DNA from: Phycisphaerae bacterium
GTDB lineage: Bacteria; Planctomycetota; Phycisphaerae; Phycisphaerales; SM1A02
Assembly (NCBI GenBank): GCA_034439815.1
Contig: JAWXBD010000173.1
Span: forward strand, 1,874 to 65,873
Direction: 5' to 3'
DNA length: 64,000 nt
The stretch's first letter is position 1. Each line of letters starts with the position of its first letter. Positions 9,031 to 23,326 of this stretch are shown piece after piece. The notes beneath the pieces were generated by a model, which made no database searches, was not told the DNA's origin, and worked only from the letters and a program-made list of their open reading frames with translations. Position numbers and translations under genes: made by a program.

Positions 9031-10346
9031 CGACGAATCCGCCACTTGCCCCCGACGCACGTCCCGCACACCGCGCTCGTGCCGACGCCGAAGATCAGAT
9101 GCGATGCAAACGACTCCGGCGTCCATCCCAGCATCGTCACATGATTCAGGTCGACGATCGCCAGATCGGCAAGCATGCCCGGCTGGATGGATCCCGCGTT
9201 CAATCCGAGCGACCGGGCGCCGTTGCGCGTTCCGATCGCGAGCAGTTCTGCGCCGGTGTCGCCATCGCTGCCGACAACGAGGCCGCGCGACTCGTACCGC
9301 AGCCGCTGTACGTATTCGATCCAGCGCAGCTCTTCGGTCGGCGCGATCCGGCTGTTCAGATCGGTGCCGAAGGCGATCGCGCCTCCCGCGCTGCGGAGTG
9401 CCCGGACGTCGCAGATGCCGTCGCCGAGATTGCCTTCGGTCAACGGACAGAGACACACCGTCGCGCCGGTCTTCGCCAGCGCCGTCAGATCGTCCGCGCT
9501 CGTGTGCGTGCAATGCACGGCCGTGAAACGCTGATCCATCGCGAGCCGCTCCAACAGCAGCTCCGTCGGCCGCTTGCCATGTGCACTCTGGCAGTCCGTG
9601 ATCTCCTGCTGCACTTCCTCGACATGCATGTGAAAGACCGCGGCCCGCCGCACACTCTCGCGATGGAGCCGTTCAATCGTGTCGATTGGTACGGCGCGAA
9701 CGCTGTGCGCCGTCGCGCCGACCGTTTGCGTGGAGTCGCGGCAGGCTGCGGCCAGCGCGTCAAAACGGTTCCAGTACTCCTGCTCGTCGGTCGTGCGAAA
9801 TCGGAGCTGCCCGCCGGCCAGCGGCTTTCCGAACCCGCCGTCCATGTAGCAGGTGTGCAGCAGAACGATGCGGATCCCGACATCGTGCGCGGCACTGAGG
9901 ACGCTGGCATCGAATGCGTATTGCAGCGTGTCGCCTTCCGACGACGCGTGCCGCAGATAGTGAAACTCGCCGACCGACGTGATTCCCGACGACAGCATCT
10001 CGGCGAAACACTGCCGTGACAGCTCGTAGCACTGCTCGGGTGTCATCGACGCTACGAGCTGATACATCGAGTCGCGCCACGAGAAGAACCCCGTGCCAGT
10101 GCCGCTTTGCCCCCGAAATCGCTCGGTCAGGCCGCGAAGCCCGCGCTGAAATGCGTGCGAGTGGGCGCTGACAAAGCCTGGAATGAGCGCCTTTCCCGGG
10201 AGTCGCAACGTCGACGGGCTGCTTGGCGGCATCACGGAGGTCACGCGCCCGTCACCGCCGATGCCGACGGCGCGACCGCGCTCGAGGCGCCCCCCGGTCC
10301 ACACCCAATCGGCATGCACGAGTTGCTGCGGACGGGAATCACTCAT
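9027..10346 (-). CDS. amidohydrolase superfamily, formimidoylglutamate deiminase (HutF)-like
   Basis: I chose the start at 10346 (MSDSRPQQLVHADWVWTGG...). Metal-binding motif PGFVSAHSHAFQRGLRG; 439 aa, typical for HutF/guanine-deaminase-type enzymes. The longer tracked ORF would overlap the divergent S9 peptidase gene. Confidence 0.75.
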   Translation of the reverse strand: MSDSRPQQLVHADWVWTGGRLERGRAVGIGGDGRVTSVMPPSSPSTLRLPGKALIPGFVSAHSHAFQRGLRGLTERFRGQSGTGTGFFSWRDSMYQLVASMTPEQCYELSRQCFAEMLSSGITSVGEFHYLRHASSEGDTLQYAFDASVLSAAHDVGIRIVLLHTCYMDGGFGKPLAGGQLRFRTTDEQEYWNRFDALAAACRDSTQTVGATAHSVRAVPIDTIERLHRESVRRAAVFHMHVEEVQQEITDCQSAHGKRPTELLLERLAMDQRFTAVHCTHTSADDLTALAKTGATVCLCPLTEGNLGDGICDVRALRSAGGAIAFGTDLNSRIAPTEELRWIEYVQRLRYESRGLVVGSDGDTGAELLAIGTRNGARSLGLNAGSIQPGMLADLAIVDLNHVTMLGWTPESFASHLIFGVGTSAVCGTCVGGKWRIRR

Positions 10347-10439
10347 GCGGGCGATGGTAGCATCGCCGAAGGCACTGTTGGGCCCCTTTCGAAGCCCAAG
10401 GCCGCGCGGCCGCGCACTCCCCGCCATCAGATCAACCAC

Positions 10440-12617
<2,178 letters not shown>

Positions 12618-12651: not shown

Positions 12652-13275
12652 ATGCAGAAACCTGATCCCCCAAAAGCGCTCCAAGATGCCCTCACCGATC
12701 CGAAGTCGCTGGCAGCAATGCAGCATGTGCGGGCGATCCTTGAGTACATCGGTGAGGACCCAGACCGTGAAGGGCTGATCGATACGCCGAAGCGCGTGGT
12801 GAAGGCGTGGCAGGAGCACTTTTACGGATATCACGAAGATCCGCTCGCGCCGCTCGCTCGGACATTCACCGAAATCGAAGACTACGACGAGCTCGTGCTG
12901 CTGCAGGACATCGAAGTGCACAGCCACTGTGAGCATCACATGGTGCCGTTCGTCGGCAAGGCCCATGTCGGCTACATCCCCAACGGCAAGGTGACAGGAC
13001 TCTCAAAGCTCGCGCGCGTCGTGGAAATCTATTCAAAGCGGCTGCAGGTCCAGGAAAAGCTGACCGCGCAGATCGCGGGCGCCATCTGGAAGGCGCTGGA
13101 GCCTCACGGCGTTGCTGTCGTGATTCAGGCGCGCCACTTCTGCATGTGTTACCGGGGTGTGCGCCAGCCCAGCGCCGTCACGACCACCAGCAAACTGCAC
13201 GGGATCTTCTTGACGAATCCGGCCGCGCGGGCCGAGTTTTTCACGTTGCTCAAGATGCGGCCGGGCGGAAACTGA
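12652..13275 (+). CDS. folE: GTP cyclohydrolase I
   Basis: I chose the start at 12652 (MQKPDPPK...). Motifs [64 protein letters not shown]. Confidence 0.93.
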
Positions 13276-15043
13276 TGCGCCGGCACCGATGGCGCACTGG
13301 GCCGCTGTGCCCGGCCAGAAACTCCAGCTGCTCATTCATGCGCGCCGGCTGCAGCGCCCGCTTTCCGATCGTGTAACGAATCTCGCCTTCGGCGCCGAGG
13401 ATGATCGTGACGCCGCCGTACAGCGTCACTGCCGTCTTCCGCCCGGGGCGCCTCACCTCGACGGACTGCACGACTTCTGCAACGAGATCGAACGCGACAG
13501 TCCCCTGCGGACCGACGCGGCGCAGGCTGCGGATCGACTCGATCGTCGGACGATCGACGAGATGCCCTTCCTTCGAGCGACCCGGCTTCTCGAGTCCGAA
13601 CGCCGCGAGCCGTCCGTCGCTGATGTACGCACCAAGTACTTCACCCTGTCGAATCAGTTCCGCTTCGCCCGCCGGTCGCCCGGGCTCGCCATTGAACCGC
13701 AAATCCCCGAACGAAAGTCCGCGGATCATGCGCTCAGGCAGTCGAAACGGCCGCCAGAGCAGCGCCTCTTCCGAGAGCGTCGGCACGTGCCGCGGGTAGA
13801 TCGCGCGGCGCCGAAACGCCGCGATAATGGACTCGCGATAACCCCACGGATCGTCAGGAACGAGATCGTGGTCCGCGGTGATGAGCGCCCGCACGTATTC
13901 GCCAAGCTCGATGTTCACCGGCGGGCAATAGTCAATCGCACGGATGCAGATATTCAGGAACTGCGTGGCGACGCGCGCCGCCTCATCGGTCACGAGCTCG
14001 ATGAGCTCATGCGGCAACTGTCCTTCGGGGTACACGCCGGTCCCGCCCGAACCGAGCCGCATGAACGACTGCACGCGCCGCTGCACGATGCGCGTAAACG
14101 CTTCGAAGACCGAGCCAAGCAGCAGCTCGCCGAGATCATGCGCGTCGAGTGCTTTGCTGTACTGCTTGATCGGAGTGTCGCTGTCCCCCGCTGCCTCGAC
14201 CGCGTGGCGGAGCGCGTTGCCTGCGCCGACCGCGGTTCCGAACTGCGCCGCCACGCGCGAGAGTACGGATTCGCGCGACAGATCACCGCGCACGCCGGCG
14301 ACCGCCTCACGCAGAACTCCTCGATGCGTGAGTCGGTGAAAAATGGCGACGACGTCGGAGAATCCTTCGTGAAACCCGTCGACATCCTTGCTGGTCGACA
14401 GCGCGAAGCCGGGTCGCATGCCGTCGAGAAACGCGTGCGACAGTTCGTGCGCGACCACGTCGTGCGAAAGGCACGTGAAGATCCACTCGCGCGCGTGCTG
14501 CCGTGAACCGTCGCTCCCCGCTGACTGGAAATATCCGAACGCGACCTCGCCGTTCTCACGGTCGTAATACGCATTGTCCTCGTTGAACGCATGCGGACGC
14601 AGCCGCAGCGTCTTGCCTGGAAATCCCCACGAAGGATCACGACCGAGTGCGGTCTGAAACGTCGCGTACAACCGCGCTGCCACCGCGTACACCATCTGCT
14701 GATGTGACTTGGGCTCGGTGGACGACGGCGCAACACCCGACTGGATCAGCAGGTTTCTCGCCTCAAGATCCACCGGCGCGTAGGTGCGCTGTGCCGAGTC
14801 GTCACGGTCGACGACTTCGATAACCGCGCCGATCGGTCCGGGCAACAGCGGCTCAAATGGAACGTGCGCCTCCGTCACGCAGCCTTCAAAGCGTGACACC
14901 GCCGGATCGACGGCGAAGATGCGCAACCGACGAAACGGAGGATCATCCGCAGCGCGTCGATACGGTCGAATGTCGGCGGGCCACGTCAGTCGCGCGCCGA
15001 GCCGGAATCCTCTCGACGCAGCGGGCTTCACGGAGTGCTTCAT
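13250..15043 (-). CDS. cytoplasmic thermolysin-like (gluzincin, M4-like) zinc metallopeptidase with extra N- and C-terminal domains
   Basis: I chose the start at 15043 ([10 protein letters not shown]...), 13 nt after the upstream gene's stop. The motif order matches thermolysin: [27 protein letters not shown] (HELSH at nt 14435-14449), then [13 protein letters not shown] as the candidate third Zn ligand Glu. No signal peptide is visible. The 3' end overlaps convergent folE by 26 nt. Confidence 0.75.
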
Positions 15044-15056
15044 GGCGAACTTGGTC

Positions 15057-17456
15057 CTATCGCAGGCGTCGAGCAATCGCTTCCAACGATCGAGCGATCG
15101 CAGCTCGATCGCCAGCACCAAGACTGCTGGATGTCCGTCCAAGAGAAGTGCGGCCGTCGCGCGTCGGAGCGAGCAGCGGCAGGGATCGCCGTTCGTCTCC
15201 GCAGTGCAGCTCAGGAAGCTGCCGCGCCATCGTACCGAACGCGCTGCGCACTGACTCCAATAGTCCTTCGTTGGTGATCGCCCCGTTTCCAAGTTCGGCT
15301 GTGCTCTTCTGAAGGATCCTGGTGGCGATGCGTGTGAAATCGCCGTGGCCGTTGGACTCCCAGGCGCTCTCGGACGAGCGGCACGCCGAGAAGAAAACTT
15401 CGCTTGCAGCATGCACACCCCGCGCATTGCGCGACGCGCTCATGCCGCGGGCTGCCGCCGCGAGCTGCGCACGAAATGCAACGTGACGGCTGGTGAGCAC
15501 CTCGTTCACGGGAAGGAACCGGCGACGCTGGTCGGTGCAGTCCGCAGGCGCAGCGTCGATGCCCAGCGGCGCCGCGAAGATGCGGTTCATCGTGCCGGAG
15601 TGGCAACAGTCGAAAATGCACGTGATGTTGACGCCGCGCGGCGCAGCGCGAAACACCTCAGCGAGATCGTCGTCGATGACAAACGCGCCGGCCTCGTAGT
15701 CGAACGGCACCATCGCTTCGTCAAAGCCCGGCGTGTCGCCGTCGGCCTCGTCACCATCCACATCGCGGATGCGCGTTCCGTGACCGGCGTACTGCATCAC
15801 GACTACATCGCCGGCGGTCGCCGAACGCAGAATTCCGCGCATCGCGGCCAGGATTCCTTCGCGCGTGGCCTCTGCGTCGAGAAGCGGCGCGCGAACGTCA
15901 AATCCGAGTTGCGCCAATGTCTCGTGCCAGAGCCGCGCATCCGCGACGCATCCGGACAACGGACTGGCGCTGTAGCGGTTGATGCCGATACAGAGTGCGA
16001 GCCGCTTGCCTCCAGGCGGCGCGTCCTCTGCTTCGTCATCCTGCGAATCGACAACAGGGTCCACCGTCACGGTCGGTCCGCGATGCGCCGGTACATCAAT
16101 TCCGCGGCGATCCATTTCTTCGCGCAGATCCTGCTCCACATCAAACGTCCGCGCGGCTGCTGGTGCGAATCCGATGATCGACGTCGCATCCGCGCCGAGC
16201 ACGTGGCGCAGCACACTGTTCATCGTCGCCGGATCATCGTCGAAGGCACCGTGCGCAGTCGCTTCGGTCACTCCCGGCGCCGTTCCGGAAAACGCGATGT
16301 CGCCGGGGGGATTCGTGGCATTCGCGAGACCGAACAACCGGGCGACGTCGCCATTGCGACGAAGACTTTCTTCGAGCCCGAGAATCTCCGTGCCAGACTC
16401 CGCCTCGAGCGATGCGCGAATCAGGTACAGCAGCGACTTCTGATAGGGACCACAGTTGTCGGCGCGCTCCAGGTCGCGCGCCATCGTGAACATCTTGACG
16501 CGCTTGACCGCAGACCCGACAAGCGGCGCCACACGGGCGCGGAACTCCTCGACGGTGATCGCCGGCGCCATCAGCGTCAGCGTCTGCGCCGCCGGCAATC
16601 CCAGCGACCGCGCAGCCTGCAGCAGGTGCGCGTGCAAGATCGAACCGGCGCTATGGCCGACGAGATGGAACTCGATGTCACGATCCGAGCGATCGATCTC
16701 TTCCTGCAACAGTGTGAGTGCGCGTCGTCCTCCACCAGCGGCATCGAACGAGCGCTCGGCGCTGCGCTTCATGCCCGACCAGATTGTCGGACCGCCGAAC
16801 ACCCGCGCCAGCGCTTCCAACACGGGATCGGTGGTCCAGTCCGCGAGATCGCGCCTGCCGAGGGCGCGGCCCGCACTGCCCGTGATGATCTGACTGATCG
16901 TCTCCCAGAATCCGGTCTCCCACACGAAGTGAATCGGATACACGCCATTGGCCATCCACCACGGCGTCTGGTGCGCGGCAATCGTGAGACCCGACTCTTC
17001 GCCGACGAGCCCGCCGTGCGCAAACAGCACGATCCGCGCGGGTCCGGTTCCCCCCGCTGCCAGCCACGCGCGCAGATGTTCGCGAAAGAGCGCGTCCACG
17101 TCTTCTTTCGTCGACGTGAATCGACCGCCCTGCGAGAAGCGTCCCTGATTCAGATTGATGACGTGTGCCCGCAGCTGTGCGAGCGCCGCTGGATCGAGCC
17201 CGTCGGATGCGCGCGGTGCCATCGCTGCTGGAATGGCGAGGCGCTCGACGCCCGCTACCACTGCAGCGGCTTCGGCGGTCGGAACTGCGGGCAGTTCCGC
17301 ATCGGGTGCAAACGGTTGCGACACCGGCGCGTCAGCCGCACGCTTCGCCGCCGTCCGAGCGGCCTTCGATACGGGCGTGTGCGGGGAAGGTGTCGCGGGC
17401 GGCATGATGCGCGGCACGCCGGACGGCGCGGGTTGCTTTCCTTTGCGTTTCGACAT
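15057..17456 (-). CDS. fusion protein: basic/Pro-rich N-terminus, alpha/beta-hydrolase (GxSxG lipase/esterase-like) domain, then a caspase-like peptidase C14 domain
   Basis: 799 aa. The hydrolase part reads IVLFAHGGLVGEESG ... HLVGHSAGS, with the Ser269 codon at 16650-16652. An acidic linker DSQDDEAEDAPPGG follows. The caspase part reads LALCIGINRY, QYAGHG (His559, nt 15780-15782), FDCCHSG (Cys618, nt 15603-15605) and FSACRSSESAWE...GHGDFT. No signal peptide is visible. Confidence 0.8.
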   Translation of the reverse strand: MSKRKGKQPAPSGVPRIMPPATPSPHTPVSKAARTAAKRAADAPVSQPFAPDAELPAVPTAEAAAVVAGVERLAIPAAMAPRASDGLDPAALAQLRAHVINLNQGRFSQGGRFTSTKEDVDALFREHLRAWLAAGGTGPARIVLFAHGGLVGEESGLTIAAHQTPWWMANGVYPIHFVWETGFWETISQIITGSAGRALGRRDLADWTTDPVLEALARVFGGPTIWSGMKRSAERSFDAAGGGRRALTLLQEEIDRSDRDIEFHLVGHSAGSILHAHLLQAARSLGLPAAQTLTLMAPAITVEEFRARVAPLVGSAVKRVKMFTMARDLERADNCGPYQKSLLYLIRASLEAESGTEILGLEESLRRNGDVARLFGLANATNPPGDIAFSGTAPGVTEATAHGAFDDDPATMNSVLRHVLGADATSIIGFAPAAARTFDVEQDLREEMDRRGIDVPAHRGPTVTVDPVVDSQDDEAEDAPPGGKRLALCIGINRYSASPLSGCVADARLWHETLAQLGFDVRAPLLDAEATREGILAAMRGILRSATAGDVVVMQYAGHGTRIRDVDGDEADGDTPGFDEAMVPFDYEAGAFVIDDDLAEVFRAAPRGVNITCIFDCCHSGTMNRIFAAPLGIDAAPADCTDQRRRFLPVNEVLTSRHVAFRAQLAAAARGMSASRNARGVHAASEVFFSACRSSESAWESNGHGDFTRIATRILQKSTAELGNGAITNEGLLESVRSAFGTMARQLPELHCGDERRSLPLLAPTRDGRTSLGRTSSSLGAGDRAAIARSLEAIARRLR

Positions 17457-17507: not shown

Positions 17508-18197
17508 TCATGCCCGACCATACACGGGCAGCAAGGCGCCGCTCGTCACCGTGTTCGCGGGCGCTGCGAGAGACACGATCATCTGCGTGACGTCATCGAG
17601 GAGGGGCCAAGATGCATGATCGGCATCTGGCATTGCGGCGCGATTCGCGGGCGTGTTGAGGATGGACGGCAGGATCGCGTTGACGAGGATGCGGTCTTCG
17701 CGCACTTCTTCAGCGAGCGACTGCGTGATCGACGCCACGGCTGCCTTACTCATGCTGTAGGCGATCATGCCGCCCACGGGACGCACGGCGGGCCGGGCGG
17801 CGACGTTGACGATCCGCCCTCCTCGCCCGGCGCTGCGCATGCGGCGTACCGCTTCACGGCAGCAGTAAAAGCAGGTCATCGCATTCATCTGCATCATCCG
17901 CTCGACATCGGCGCCGGTCGTCTCGAGAATCGGCGCCATCGCGAAACCGCCGGCGAGGTGAATCGAGACCCCCAGGTCGGGCAGCGACCGATAGAACGAG
18001 TTGACTTCGGACTCGGAGCGGAGATCGACCTTCGACGTCGTGTATGCGCCCCCCGTAAAGGACGGCGCCGCGGAGTCCGTCTCGTCGAACCACGGCACAT
18101 GCACGTGGGAACCTGCGGCGAGCAGGCGCGCCACGACCGCATGACCGAGCGCTCCCGCTCCCCCCGTCACGACCGCATGCACTCCATCAAACCTCAT
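17508..18197 (-). CDS. short-chain dehydrogenase/reductase (SDR) family oxidoreductase
   Basis: I chose the start at 18197 (MRFDGVHAVVTGGAGALGHAV...). TGxxGxxG Rossmann motif and an SDR-like YSMSKAA catalytic region. The stop is 51 nt upstream of the caspase-fusion gene on the same strand. Confidence 0.85.
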   Translation of the reverse strand: MRFDGVHAVVTGGAGALGHAVVARLLAAGSHVHVPWFDETDSAAPSFTGGAYTTSKVDLRSESEVNSFYRSLPDLGVSIHLAGGFAMAPILETTGADVERMMQMNAMTCFYCCREAVRRMRSAGRGGRIVNVAARPAVRPVGGMIAYSMSKAAVASITQSLAEEVREDRILVNAILPSILNTPANRAAMPDADHASWPLLDDVTQMIVSLAAPANTVTSGALLPVYGRA

Positions 18198-18358
18198 GTT
18201 CAAAGCCCTCTTCGCTCGCTCGCGTTCCGTCTGTCGCTCAAACACCGCAAACGGACCACGCGGCAGCGCGCTGAAACGGTACCATCTCCGCTCTTTCGCT
18301 CGAACGTCCCGAAGCATCCACCAACGTTCCCATACGCGAACCGCCGCGAGATCCGATC

Positions 18359-19987: not shown

Positions 19988-20503
19988 TCAATACACATTG
20001 TATTTCTTGCCGGCGCCATCGACTTCGGCGTCGGCGCAGTTCGCGGTGACCGTGCCGGTTGCCGCGGTGTAGACCCAGCCACCCGCGCCACCGAGCGTGG
20101 CGACGAAGGCCGTCTCACCCTTCTTGGCACCGACGCTGAGCGCCGGAATCGTGCGGACGTACGGACCGTAGATGACGCCCGTGGCGACATCGCGTGCGCC
20201 GAACGTCGTGCCTGCGAGGTTCGAGTACTGCGTGAGGGCGTTCGTGAGATCGCCGATCGCCGGATAGGTCTGACCATGCTCCGCGGCAAACATCTCGATG
20301 CCGTTGCGGATCACGGAGAGGTTTGCGGCCAGCGCATTCTCGCCAGCGGCACTCGCGCCGCGGCTGAGCCGCGGTACAGCGATCGCGGCGAGGACCCCGA
20401 TGATCACGATGACGATGACGAGCTCGATCAGGCTGAACGCTCGCAGCCGACGGATGCTCTGGGCTGAACGCGAGGAAAACGTGTGAAGAGCCGCACTGTA
20501 CAT
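19988..20503 (-). CDS. major type IV pilin / GspG-like pseudopilin (prepilin-type N-terminal methylation domain)
   Basis: I chose the start at 20503, with a GGAGG RBS 5 nt upstream. The leader ends ...IRRLRA, followed by FSLIELVIVIVIIGVLAAIAVP with Glu at +5. It is the last gene of the pilus gene string. Confidence 0.85.
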   Translation of the reverse strand: MYSAALHTFSSRSAQSIRRLRAFSLIELVIVIVIIGVLAAIAVPRLSRGASAAGENALAANLSVIRNGIEMFAAEHGQTYPAIGDLTNALTQYSNLAGTTFGARDVATGVIYGPYVRTIPALSVGAKKGETAFVATLGGAGGWVYTAATGTVTANCADAEVDGAGKKYNVY

Positions 20504-20640
20504 ATCGCCTCCTGAAGTCATTCTTTCGCCGGTTTCGCGCCGGCCGTTATGCACTCATCGGAGTTCCACCGACCCGACTTCGGTGATTGCCGCGCTATTG
20601 GGCGGAAGAAGAACCTCGTTTCGCGGGGCGAGTGCAGGCG

Positions 20641-21171
20641 TTAACGGACGCGCCGCTCGACATTCATGCCGTCCCGCGCAAAGACGACGGCGCCTTCACT
20701 GATGCCGGCGACGGTCCATCCGTCGATTTCGCCCGCGAGCGGCACCGTCTTCCCGTTCACGATGGCTGCGGGGCGCTGGCCGGTGAGGACGGCGGTCACC
20801 TGCGGCGCGTCCACGACCACGGGGGCGCTCTCCACGGTCTCGACGACTTCCACCGGCGGCGGCCGACGGAACGCCTCATCAAGCGCCGCAAGATTCGAGT
20901 GATCCTGGACCTGATTCTGGACACCCATGGCCCGGAGCTGGTCGGCGAGGCGCGCCATCGCGATCTGCTCGCTCGAAAGCGTCGCGGCGACCGGCGCCTG
21001 CGTCGGGTTGACCATCAGATCGGAGCCCAGCAGCGCCGCATCGGCGCCGGAGGGACCTGAGACCGCGCCACCCAGCATGAATCGGTCGAGTGCCCAGGCA
21101 CCGACCGCGCACGTCAAGATCGCGACATACACCTTACGTTTACTTGGAGCCGGCATGGACTCAACCATCAC
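20641..21171 (-). CDS. pilus/secretion accessory membrane protein (PilP/GspC-like), hypothetical
   Basis: 176 aa with one N-terminal TM segment (VYVAILTCAVGAWAL). The C-terminal beta-rich segment is VTAVLTGQRPAAIVNGKTVPLAGEIDGWTVAGISEGAVVF, resembling PilP/GspC cores. The assignment rests mainly on its position after PilO. Confidence 0.5.
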   Translation of the reverse strand: MMVESMPAPSKRKVYVAILTCAVGAWALDRFMLGGAVSGPSGADAALLGSDLMVNPTQAPVAATLSSEQIAMARLADQLRAMGVQNQVQDHSNLAALDEAFRRPPPVEVVETVESAPVVVDAPQVTAVLTGQRPAAIVNGKTVPLAGEIDGWTVAGISEGAVVFARDGMNVERRVR

Positions 21172-21198
21172 AAGCGTGCACGTGAAGTCAAGTCAGGA

Positions 21199-21801
21199 TC
21201 ACGGAGTCGGCGCGGCGGCGGTGGCCCGATCGGCAGCACGATCCGCATACCACACAAGGTCGAGCTGAAGTGACGCTGCAGTCGGACCATCCTGACGAGT
21301 GAGGTCAAACGATTCAATCGCGACATCCGGAAATGCCGAACGCAAGGCCGCCATGAAGCGCACGCCGGCCGGTGTGCCACCACGCGCAACCATGCGCAGC
21401 GGCACGCGCACCGCCAGCGGCGTGTCCGTCGCTATCCCAGGTTCCATGCGCTCCACTTCCAATTCATGCGCCGCAGCGAGCTTCGCCAGTTCGCCTAACC
21501 GGGCATTCAGCGCCGTCGCCGGCTGCAGCCGGACGGTCGACGAGGCGAGCTCCTGCTCCTGCGTGCGCAGTGTCGTATGCAGCGTTTCGCGCCGCTCGGC
21601 AAATGCGGCTACGTCCGCACGGACCGTCGCGAGCGCCGCGAGCAGGGAGCTGGACCGTGCCGATGCAGTCGCATACGGATGCACGCTGAAGACGTACCAG
21701 GCGACCGTCAGCAGCATGATTGCCGCCATGGCGCCCATGTGCACCGGACCACTGCCGTCGATGAAGCGTCGAGACCTGGTCATTGGCGCCATTCGGGTCA
21801 T
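21199..21801 (-). CDS. PilO/GspM-like pilus assembly protein
   Basis: 200 aa: short cytoplasmic N-terminus, one TM segment (GAMAAIMLLTVAWYVF), a coiled-coil region, then an alpha/beta C-terminal domain. The ATGA overlap with the PilN stop supports the operon position. Confidence 0.65.
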   Translation of the reverse strand: MTRMAPMTRSRRFIDGSGPVHMGAMAAIMLLTVAWYVFSVHPYATASARSSSLLAALATVRADVAAFAERRETLHTTLRTQEQELASSTVRLQPATALNARLGELAKLAAAHELEVERMEPGIATDTPLAVRVPLRMVARGGTPAGVRFMAALRSAFPDVAIESFDLTRQDGPTAASLQLDLVWYADRAADRATAAAPTP

Positions 21802-22385
21802 CGGGTTCCTCCGACGAGCAGCTCGCCGTCAATTGCAAACTCAATCGAGTCATCGCCGGTAGCCAGCATGGATGCGCGCGAGCTGGCGCGGATGAGCGAG
21901 ACCCTGCGAAAGATTCCGAAGCTCTCAAGCTGCATGACGAAGTCGGTAACGCGTCCGAGATCGCGCGTCTCGCCTTCGAGACGCAGTGAGAGCAGCTCCT
22001 GCTTTGTCGCGTCCGAGCGCGTCAGGGCCCAACGACGGAAGATCATCGTGTCAGGCCGGGCGGCGAGCACGCGCACCAAGAGGACACTCCAGTCGGGATG
22101 GTCGACCGTGGCGCGCGACGCGGCGATCGATCGCGATGCTGCGGCGACGCCGCGCTCGAGCTTCGAGATGTTTTCCTGAAGTCGCGCTGCCTCAGTCTGC
22201 AGCGCATCGATTTCACGTTGTGTCGCGGCCTGGTCTGGCGCAGGAAACATCCGCGCAACCGCGAGGGTGCAGCCGGTAAGCATTGCGGCCAAGACGGCGG
22301 CGAAGACGCCCCATCGTCCGAGCAGGCGCCGACGCGCGGCAGCAGCGCGTCGTCGCCAAGGAAGGAAGTTGAATGCAGTTTTCAC
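21798..22385 (-). CDS. PilN-like pilus assembly protein
   Basis: 195 aa, GTG start. N-terminal FNFLPWRRR motif (PilN INLLPW-type), one TM segment, coiled coil. 4-nt overlaps on both sides. Confidence 0.7.
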   Translation of the reverse strand: MKTAFNFLPWRRRAAAARRRLLGRWGVFAAVLAAMLTGCTLAVARMFPAPDQAATQREIDALQTEAARLQENISKLERGVAAASRSIAASRATVDHPDWSVLLVRVLAARPDTMIFRRWALTRSDATKQELLSLRLEGETRDLGRVTDFVMQLESFGIFRRVSLIRASSRASMLATGDDSIEFAIDGELLVGGTR

Positions 22386-23326
22386 GGTGCCTCCGTGCGC
22401 AGGGCCAAGCCAAGCGCTACGACCATCGACGGTCCGAATCCCTTGGTGTCGATCGATTGAAACTGCGCGAGGGGCGCGGCCAGGACGGGAACGACTTTGA
22501 TCTCCAGCGCCTCGTCGAGCGCGTTGGAGAGCGCCGCGACGTCCGCATCACTTCCGAGCAGGAGGACCCGACGCACGGTTTCCGATGGATGTCGGTGCAC
22601 GAGATATCCGAGCGTCAGACGTACCTCGGACACAAACGAGTCGACGGCGAAACCGCCCGTATCACCGGCGCACGCGCCGATGCCGTGCGGCGCGATCTTG
22701 CGCACGTAGCTGACCTCGCCCTTCTCAAGGACGATGAGCATCGCGACATCGCTCGAACGGTCGATCACCACTTCCACGTTCGGACCGGCGATACCGCGAC
22801 AGGCGCGGGCGATGGCGACCGGGCGCAGTTCAATGGCGTCAATGGGAAGACCGGTTTCGTCAAAGCTTCGCGCGAGAGCATCCGCCGTTTCGCTCACGAC
22901 CCCGGCGCCGAGCGACCGTGTGGCCGTGGCGGCGGCCGTCCGCTCCTGCGTCGACCACCACGCCACTTCGAGCGATGAGGGCTCGACTTGACGCATTCGT
23001 CCAAGCTGTTCCGCAACCATGTCGCCAAGTGGAGCACCGGAACTCACTGCGGGCAGCATGAGTTCCGCAAGCGTGACGTCGGCGTCGGGCATGCTCACAA
23101 TGAGCGGCGCATCGCGAAAGCCTCGCCGCGCCATGACGCGGACGAGCCGCCCGATTTCTTCGGTGACAGGCTGTCCCTGCAACTGACGCGGCAGCTCAAG
23201 AGCCGCAACGACACGTCGATCACCGCGGCGCAGCAGCTGCACGGCTGCCAGGCGCGTCGCACCAAGATCGATGCCGATCGGTCCCGCTGATCCGAACCCG
23301 GGATAAATGGTGCGACTGTGCATCAT
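22382..23326 (-). CDS. PilM-like actin-fold pilus assembly ATPase
   Basis: 314 aa. N-terminal IGIDLGATRLAAVQL (actin/HSP70-fold phosphate-1 motif). Size and position immediately upstream of PilN fit PilM. Confidence 0.8.
   Translation of the reverse strand: MMHSRTIYPGFGSAGPIGIDLGATRLAAVQLLRRGDRRVVAALELPRQLQGQPVTEEIGRLVRVMARRGFRDAPLIVSMPDADVTLAELMLPAVSSGAPLGDMVAEQLGRMRQVEPSSLEVAWWSTQERTAAATATRSLGAGVVSETADALARSFDETGLPIDAIELRPVAIARACRGIAGPNVEVVIDRSSDVAMLIVLEKGEVSYVRKIAPHGIGACAGDTGGFAVDSFVSEVRLTLGYLVHRHPSETVRRVLLLGSDADVAALSNALDEALEIKVVPVLAAPLAQFQSIDTKGFGPSMVVALGLALRTEAP

Follow-up and report, generated by a model that had tools for sequence, protein, structure and literature searches.

A metacaspase-type protein and a thermolysin-like zinc peptidase form a mobile two-gene module in bacteria: a candidate programmed-death system

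We analysed a 64,000-nucleotide stretch of the genome of a Phycisphaerae bacterium (contig JAWXBD010000173.1, positions 1,874 to 65,873; hereafter the window), in which a preliminary description had drawn attention to two adjacent minus-strand genes, here named gene A and gene B. Gene A encodes a putative serine hydrolase joined to a metacaspase, and gene B a thermolysin-like zinc peptidase. Comparison with other genomes and metagenomes showed that A and B form one autonomous, horizontally mobile two-protease module. They are regarded as a functional module because of their reciprocal synteny across phyla, their co-evolution and their operonic spacing, while mobility is deduced from the unrelated flanks, the ~45–50% identity found across phyla and the presence of B relatives on 53 plasmids. 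We hypothesize that the module may act as a latent cytoplasmic proteolytic switch leading to programmed death or abortive infection, a function to which we give an even chance.

Conservation and co-inheritance of the A-B pair

The preliminary description had proposed a two-gene module, and this proposal was strengthened by the synteny of A and B homologues across phyla, which was observed in both directions. For B, one genome per species was scanned, yielding more than 550 loci, the best 84 of which were used to count neighbours. An A-type gene lies directly upstream on the same strand in 33 of these 84 loci. The A-carrying loci are concentrated among the B homologues closest to the window B, and some close relatives (L013, L014, L021 and L023) lack A. 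Open reading frames upstream of the unpaired B loci L013, L046 and L080 were considered as new partners and rejected, being arginine-rich wrong-frame artefacts with no Pfam matches. For the reverse scan, metagenome contigs were searched with the hydrolase domain of A alone. Enough downstream sequence was available at 63 loci, and at 56 of them the caspase domain is present and B follows immediately.

Moreover, the distance matrices of A and B, computed over 81 cognate pairs, are strongly correlated (r = 0.88), a value reached by none of 999 Mantel permutations (0/999). The two genes are separated by 2–10 nucleotides (nt) at L002, L085, L086 and L087 (Opitutaceae EW11 and three metagenome contigs) and by 149 nt in the second Phycisphaerales genome (L004). 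One representative, P0282, carries A and B fused in a single protein.

It could be argued that A and B are unrelated enzymes that became neighbours by chance, with no coupling between them. This explanation is highly improbable, and the comparative data effectively refute it: the synteny holds both ways, the A-B distances are correlated, the gaps measure 2–13 nt in most of the loci checked, and the peptidoglycan-hydrolase domain described below is placed on A or on B in a complementary way.

The carriers belong to the Planctomycetota, Verrucomicrobiota, Acidobacteriota, Gemmatimonadota, Armatimonadota, Chloroflexota, Nitrospirota and Chlorobiota, as well as to the Alpha-, Beta-, Gamma- and Deltaproteobacteria. 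Hundreds of sequenced species from many phyla possess the module, including cultured ones (Pseudomonas fluorescens PS723, Massilia niastensis DSM 21313, Polaromonas species and Kaistia soli DSM 19436). Only one A-B copy was found in the window. Insertion sites differ even within the Phycisphaerae: the pair stands between folE and a short-chain dehydrogenase/reductase (SDR) gene in the window genome, and next to FtsJ/gyrA and LpxI in the other. Given that the flanks differ entirely between genomes and that no neighbour family recurs, no third component is assigned to the module. The SDR gene, which according to the earlier suggestion could be co-transcribed with A, does end 51 nt upstream of it; it was rejected as a module member, since it is not beside the pair in any other genome examined.

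Domain organisation and catalytic sites

The coordinates and motifs first described for protein A (799 amino acids, aa) were all recovered, namely the Ser269 motif, the His-Cys dyad, the FSACRSSESAWE..GHGDFT segment and the basic Pro/Ala-rich tail. The segment FSACRSSESAWE begins at residue 689 and GHGDFT at residue 703. We found more than 1500 homologues of A, with 42–55% identity. The AlphaFold2 (AF2) model of A has a mean predicted local distance difference test score (pLDDT) of 80. Nearly all of residues 1–84 fall below 50, indicating predicted disorder. The features of both genes are listed in Table 1.

In the hydrolase domain of A, H147, G148, G149 and S269 are found in at least 90% of the homologues, and D333 and H402 are invariant in the mid-domain alignment. 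As judged from the AF2 strands and the alignments, the domain shows the nucleophile elbow, the Ser-acid-His order and the oxyanion HG(G) of the alpha/beta-hydrolase fold. An alpha/beta-fold assignment was accepted because the invariant HGG, GHSAG, Asp and His occupy canonical positions after predicted strands, and residues 88–432 are therefore supported, by alignment and model, as a serine hydrolase of this fold. Matches to Pfam families remained below the cut-offs (DUF900, E = 0.003–0.009; Abhydrolase_3, E = 0.009–0.03) and concerned 1 of the 19 members tested; a PDB profile search with this domain returned no match, and the Foldseek list obtained with the whole protein was filled by caspases. 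It should be noted that this domain had first been taken for a lipase-like, membrane-active hydrolase. The serine hydrolase part of that statement stands, while the lipase and membrane-active part is an assumption: no family-level match to a lipase was obtained, and the idea of a lipid substrate goes back to what others have proposed for related effectors (PMC8195603).

The caspase domain was recognised much more readily. It matches PF00656 with an E-value of 7.8e-25 (88.3 bits for a cut-off of 21.4), and metacaspases of yeast, trypanosome and plant in the PDB with E-values of 1e-13 to 1.6e-18. Foldseek returned metacaspase 9 and Geobacter GSU0716 (E about 1e-15, probability 1.0), the target-normalised template modelling (TM) score of the caspase matches reaching 0.76. 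The His559-Cys618 dyad, complete as first described, is conserved in at least 90% of 100 homologues, and the loop 620–639, located at the position of the p20/p10 linker, is predicted to be disordered in the AF2 model. On the strength of these matches, the C-terminal domain of A is to be considered a bona fide metacaspase. It did not pass the NCBIfam model NF047832 (caspase_w_EACC1), with 23.4 bits for a cut-off of 140. The domain is followed by a disordered spacer (residues 770–779 at pLDDT <50) and a C-terminal helix whose A..L...A..L pattern is kept in the family consensus.

For B, we retained the ATG at 15043 as start codon; in the public annotation the gene begins at a GTG at 15118 and thereby overlaps A (P0001, 622 aa). 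The start of B 13 nt past the A stop and the thermolysin order of its motifs were confirmed in the sequence (NAYY from residue 157, FGYF from 169, HELSH at 199–203 and HEGFSD at 225–230), and Foldseek pointed to the M4 fold. HEGFSD fits the NExxSD pattern of thermolysin (family M4). No variation was seen among 100 homologues at H199, E200, H203, E226, D230 and H302. The AF2 model of B is of high confidence (mean pLDDT 90, predicted TM score 0.92), and its sole confident structural neighbour is the vibriolysin MCP-02 (3nqz_B; E = 9.9e-6, probability 1.00, target-normalised TM 0.58), a fold match that supports the M4-like assignment. The Pfam profiles of M4 peptidases were not passed: PF01447 scored 17.1 bits for a cut-off of 22.4 and PF02868 (Peptidase_M4_C) was undetected. 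More generally, B belongs to no Pfam, NCBIfam or PADLOC family, and no listed homologue carries a precomputed Pfam domain. This is a large family, with at least 4845 homologues at 90% clustering and, in an exhaustive scan, 5102 representative clusters at 50% identity, 1562 of them with E ≤ 1e-30. The two terminal domains of B are conserved as well: P35, R38, L40, D46, P62 and E64 are invariant in the N-terminal one, and the C-terminal one gave weak Foldseek matches to NTF2-like domains and to the C-terminal domain of orange carotenoid proteins.

Many B homologues (P0006, P0009, P0017, P0036 and others) possess a conserved N-terminal peptide, ~sTPeATAAvAQsR, whose last residue, a conserved Arg, might be a site of cleavage by a metacaspase. 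This peptide is missing from the window B, when started at 15043, and from its nearest relatives. A co-loss of the peptide with the Amidase_2 domain of A (see below) was considered and rejected, since Amidase_2 occurs without the motif at 20 loci, and the motif without Amidase_2 at 4.

In agreement with the first reading of the sequence, neither protein looks secreted: no signal peptide or transmembrane segment was found in the A or the B family. In addition, B has no N-terminal hydrophobic segment, and no FTP/PepSY propeptide domain was detected in a Pfam scan. Both families thus appear cytoplasmic. Because the catalytic residues vary little or not at all among homologues, the three hydrolytic centres, i.e., the serine hydrolase and the metacaspase of A and the zinc peptidase of B, are apparently active.

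Table 1. Coordinates of the two genes, their domains and catalytic residues, and the adjacent SDR gene (positions in the window).
Feature	Position	Strand	Remarks
Gene A	15057..17456	minus	799 aa; disordered N-terminus, alpha/beta-hydrolase-like domain, metacaspase, C-terminal helix; from open reading frame and motifs
A residues 1-86, basic Ala/Pro-rich disordered tail	17199..17456	minus	22 Ala, 15 Pro
A residues 88-432, alpha/beta-hydrolase-like serine hydrolase domain (supported)	16161..17195	minus	
HGG, A residues 147-149	17010-17018	minus	after predicted strand 140-146
Ser269 of A (HLVGHSAGS from residue 264)	16650-16652	minus	GHSAG elbow: strand 261-268, then helix 271-285 (predicted)
Asp333 of A	16458-16460	minus	after predicted strand 317-325
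His402 of A	16251-16253	minus	after predicted strand 385-390
A residues 484-765, metacaspase (C14) domain	15162..16007	minus	Pfam, PDB and Foldseek matches
His559 of A (QYAGHG from residue 555)	15780-15782	minus	
Cys618 of A (FDCCHSG from residue 615)	15603-15605	minus	
A residues 781-798, C-terminal amphipathic helix	15063..15116	minus	AF2 helix
Spacer from A stop (TAG) to B ATG	15044..15056	minus	13 nt; operonic
Gene B	13250..15043	minus	597 aa; thermolysin-like zinc peptidase with extra N- and C-terminal domains
B residues 1-100, conserved N-terminal beta-rich domain	14744..15043	minus	AF2 strands 37-43, 56-62 and 75-77, high pLDDT
B residues 101-430, M4-like catalytic domain	13754..14743	minus	fold match and invariant residues
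His199, Glu200 and His203 of B	14435-14449	minus	HExxH
Glu226 of B	14366-14368	minus	downstream Glu of zinc site
B residues 431-597, linker and C-terminal alpha+beta domain	13253..13753	minus	AF2 strands 500-561; conserved in family
SDR gene	17508-18317	minus	ends 51 nt upstream of A

Peptidoglycan-acting domains in the family

A typical A homologue is longer than the window protein (940–1000 aa) and begins, from residue ~25, with an Amidase_2 domain of the T7-lysozyme/AmpD/peptidoglycan recognition protein (PGRP) type. In the window A and in its closest Phycisphaerae relatives, the basic disordered tail is found instead, at the place where most homologues have Amidase_2 (homologue residues ~25–155), and no Amidase_2-type match was obtained in the window. 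In a second variant, A begins with a DUF7379 alpha/beta-hydrolase domain instead of Amidase_2, and B gains a C-terminal PG_binding_1 domain together with GH19 or CHAP (loci L027, L028, L064, L115, L133, L151, L157 and L164; proteins P0248 and P0253). By its predicted domains, this extension of B is a modular endolysin.

To describe how these domains are distributed, 67 complete A-B pairs were tallied automatically. Amidase_2 on A only was found in 49 of the 67 pairs and a C-terminal extension of ~265–363 aa on B only in 8 (the two that were compared with Pfam proved to have PG_binding_1 plus GH19/CHAP); a single pair has both and 9 have neither. The complementarity between Amidase_2 on A and the extension on B is significant (Fisher's exact p = 2.9e-5). 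Among the nine pairs with neither module, Amidase_2 is frameshifted in L006 and degenerate in L002, which leaves 7 truly minimal pairs, the window copy among them. The window copy is thus an atypical, minority variant, minimal and without a peptidoglycan-hydrolase domain. For the family, the tally suggests that a peptidoglycan-acting domain is a near-obligatory part of the system, which swaps between three unrelated folds and two proteins. Such swapping would suit an effector more than it would a sensor of a ligand.

The state of the Amidase_2 domain deserves a closer examination. The Zn-binding His/His/Cys and the Lys are kept in the family (P0127, P0174, P0186 and others), and 99 of 105 family Amidase_2 sequences have Gln in place of the catalytic Tyr of T7 lysozyme (Tyr46 in the literature, position 47 when Met is counted). 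Because of this replacement, a binding-only role is kept in view: the domain may be a PGRP-like sensor, or may work by an altered mechanism.

Given that relatives of the pair join Amidase_2, GH19, CHAP and PG_binding_1 with hydrolase and protease domains, and that PG_binding_1 implies contact with an intact cell wall, we also considered a bacteriolytic weapon that would be exported by non-classical secretion to attack other bacteria, in competition or predation. A related amidase-lipase-metacaspase protein was indeed called 'a highly destructive weapon' in a 2012 survey (PMC3501461). However, the export signals and membrane segments that are lacking in both families speak against this role, as does the fact that no conserved secretion-system, trafficking-domain or small immunity gene is found beside the pair; moreover B is large and slowly evolving, unlike an immunity protein. 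We therefore consider an exported weapon quite unlikely.

Candidate function, related systems and genomic context

In the death or abortive-infection function that we hypothesize, A would be a zymogen-like multi-enzyme, a serine alpha/beta-hydrolase joined to a metacaspase, and B a thermolysin-like zinc endopeptidase, both of them latent at rest. Upon a trigger, e.g., phage infection, envelope stress or another stress, one protease would cut the other, or the linkers of A. The metacaspase would then contribute Arg/Lys-directed proteolysis, B a zinc-dependent endoproteolysis and the serine hydrolase the hydrolysis of esters or peptides, and this freed, promiscuous proteolysis and ester hydrolysis would arrest or kill the cell. 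Most family members would add an endolysin-type peptidoglycan hydrolase, and for this reason lysis is probably the usual output. The window copy would kill without a dedicated wall-degrading step.

The wider relatives of B lend indirect support to this hypothesis. In a sister clade of B (L045–L084, e.g., L050:8144-11839), the peptidase is followed by a protein of the metallo-beta-lactamase (MBL) fold in nearly every locus examined, the single exception being L062, a short contig. This neighbour weakly resembles the PADLOC models LmuA and RTasMBL. Frequently, sister-clade B carries an S8 subtilase fused to its N-terminal side, or is preceded by a patatin phospholipase. It also occurs on plasmids (L176, L177 and L178), where it adjoins a cyclase/SAVED pair of a cyclic oligonucleotide-based antiphage signalling system (CBASS) and an ATPase/HNH pair on pColt5.8d of Rhizobium rhizogenes, an LmuB-like ATPase in Hymenobacter and an integrase in Deinococcus. 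The M4-like plus MBL-fold locus looks like a separate, uncharacterised candidate defence system. The B domain is, rarely, fused to nSTAND1 (P0378), TPR-S (P0321) or Trypsin_2 (P0310), further fusion partners being S8, DUF7379 and Amidase_2; nSTAND1 was defined in work on counter-invader systems (PMC8195603). On the side of A, a three-gene variant without an M4-like gene was found on metagenome contigs (L155, L159 and L100). An Amidase_2 plus alpha/beta-hydrolase protein without caspase comes first, then a Trypsin_2-like or unannotated protein of ~400 aa, and finally a protein of 800–900 aa with an N-terminal caspase domain. Through these fusions and neighbours, both families share the domain repertoire of bacterial conflict systems. 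The hypothesis of a conflict or death function gains indirect support because B relatives occur with nSTAND1, TPR-S, CBASS, patatin and MBL-fold partners and because endolysin-type domains are present in most members.

Regarding the division of labour, we lean slightly towards a scheme in which B is the constant protease that licenses or senses and A is the effector, because peptidases of the B type are repeatedly found with exchangeable, effector-like partners (caspase, subtilase, trypsin, patatin and MBL-fold proteins). The opposite direction, in which B is the cleaved executioner, could also apply by analogy, as the same three classes (caspase, subtilase and trypsin) activate gasdermins elsewhere. 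A more specific proposal, which we regard as possible and rather doubtful, is that the window pair is the minimal form of a widespread, unrecognised death pathway in which a caspase and a zinc protease license fused endolysin and esterase executioners, resulting in programmed lysis. This would be the counterpart of protease-triggered lytic death, with cell-wall hydrolases in place of gasdermin pores. Alternatively, Amidase_2 with its Tyr-to-Gln replacement could be a cytosolic muropeptide sensor, in a PGRP-to-caspase axis resembling that of animal innate immunity.

Several observations weigh against a death or defence function. When 111 neighbour proteins from 19 genomes were compared with Pfam, 151 families were found, none of them in more than 5 neighbours; the commonest were cytochromes c, GNAT acetyltransferases and permeases, and no integrase, transposase, restriction or toxin-antitoxin family recurred among them. 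The location in a defence island that might have been expected from the preliminary description was thus not observed, the pair being visibly enriched neither in such islands nor near mobile-element genes. Around the pair in the window, neither tRNAs nor a GC shift were seen, and direct or inverted repeats in the flanks did not exceed chance; a recent mobile-element insertion there has no support. The pair matches no system catalogued in PADLOC v2: B has 0 matches, and A matches only the generic 'caspase' model PDLC02987, over model positions 5–160 of 453. The associations with nSTAND1 and CBASS stem from distant B relatives and not from the window pair, and the lysis proposed for most members is not directly transferable to the window copy, because this copy carries no peptidoglycan-hydrolase domain. 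Finally, for every member the function rests entirely on comparative inference.

A physiological role outside conflict, such as cell-wall turnover, developmental autolysis, a response to nutrient stress or protein quality control, was also considered. In most genomes the pair lies among housekeeping or metabolic genes, and two Polaromonas species (L008 and L026) appear to carry it at the same locus, as judged by neighbour-gene sizes only. AmpD is a cytoplasmic muropeptide amidase, and its fold is that of Amidase_2. We nevertheless hold this role to be unlikely. The distribution is patchy and crosses phyla, with different insertion sites even within the Phycisphaerae; the peptidoglycan-hydrolase module is exchanged among three unrelated folds and between two proteins; the amidase catalytic Tyr is Gln in nearly all family members; and relatives of B associate with the conflict-type partners described above.

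The hypothesis of a proteolytic death switch has precedents in known systems. In the MoxR-vWA (VMAP) ternary and GAP1 conflict systems, a caspase peptidase is obligatorily coupled to an alpha/beta-hydrolase, and thresholding of the death or defence response by a proteolytic cascade has been predicted for them (Kaur, Burroughs, Iyer, Aravind, eLife 2020, PMC7159879). The likeness to gene A lies in this coupling and does not imply orthology of the hydrolase domains. Here, in contrast, both domains are fused in one polypeptide, the window pair has no MoxR, vWA, VMAP, GTPase or effector-associated domain, and the role of constant partner falls to an M4-like zinc peptidase, an enzyme not described in PMC7159879. 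Neither MoxR, vWA nor VMAP was found within 10 kb of the pair in the window's genome, nor in six other annotated contexts. Asplund-Samuelsson et al. 2012 reported four Amidase_2-metacaspase proteins (Polaromonas, Nitrosococcus, Desulfobacterium and Chitinophaga) and speculated on programmed death (PMC3501461). Their architecture is typical of the gene A family, and the sampled Polaromonas genomes carry the A-B pair; however, the middle hydrolase domain and the M4-like neighbour went unrecognised in that survey, and the window A lacks Amidase_2.

Individually, the domains also resemble well-known enzymes. The fold and the His-Cys dyad of gene A match those of metacaspases and orthocaspases (MEROPS C14B). 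B shares the HExxH and xExxSD zinc site and the two-lobed catalytic fold with thermolysin and vibriolysin; in contrast to these M4 peptidases, it shows an identity of ~13% to them, remains below the Pfam threshold, has no signal peptide or FTP/PepSY propeptide and possesses extra conserved terminal domains. Bacterial and fungal gasdermin operons (with caspase-like, trypsin or S8 proteases), type IV Thoeris (TIR plus caspase-like) and SAVED-CHAT all place a caspase-type protease in a compact operon, as here. The partner protease classes of the gasdermin-type systems (caspase, subtilase and trypsin) also surround the B family, and the outcome in those systems is cell death. Unlike them, the present module has no gasdermin, TIR, SAVED, CRISPR or signalling-nucleotide enzyme, and the partner is itself a protease. 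Pfam annotation of the window neighbourhood likewise contained no SAVED or CRISPR partner and, as had been noted at first, no gasdermin, TIR, NTPase or STAND partner. Modular endolysins (PG_binding_1 plus GH19/CHAP/Amidase_2) and LysB-type esterases combine domains like those of A-B family members; in contrast to phage lysis enzymes, the module is chromosomal, virtually absent from viral contigs and coupled to two proteases, and the window copy has no endolysin-type domain. The initial impression that this architecture is not a described system was upheld, full-text literature searches having found no published description of the A-B pair or of the B family.

Proteases of the caspase family increasingly come to light as executioners in bacterial immunity. 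Since characterised caspase-based bacterial immunity depends on gasdermin, TIR or CRISPR partners, the A-B module would add a self-contained design, free of signal nucleotides, made of two proteases of different catalytic class with fused hydrolases. B defines a large zinc-peptidase family for which there is no Pfam model and whose members are repeatedly associated with effector-like partners. Should the death or lysis function be true, the module would offer a tractable model for how a cytoplasmic lytic arsenal is kept latent.

A phage origin of the module was also considered and rejected, with only 8 distant viral-contig matches and no fold match in BFVD. The viral contigs in question (IMG/VR, L088–L095, some of 125–390 kb) carry relatives of the M4-like catalytic core only, with 28–33% identity.

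As for the surroundings of the pair in the window, folE (GTP cyclohydrolase I) is located beside B, and glyQS lies beyond the SDR gene. The 3' end of B overlaps the convergent GTP cyclohydrolase I gene (plus strand, ending at 13275) by 26 nt (13250-13275). Promoter and terminator scans gave counts at or below the shuffle expectation. A gene for a PD40/Tricorn-like S9 peptidase (10107-12617, plus strand), which adjoins the module, encodes ten consecutive histidines at 11427-11456. Further away, from ~19988-22400 and beyond on the minus strand, there are pseudopilin-like genes (N_methyl prepilin motif FSLIELVIVIVIIG) and genes for PilN/O-like small membrane proteins. This cluster is unrelated to the A-B module and runs on, in the source contig, into type II secretion system E and F genes.

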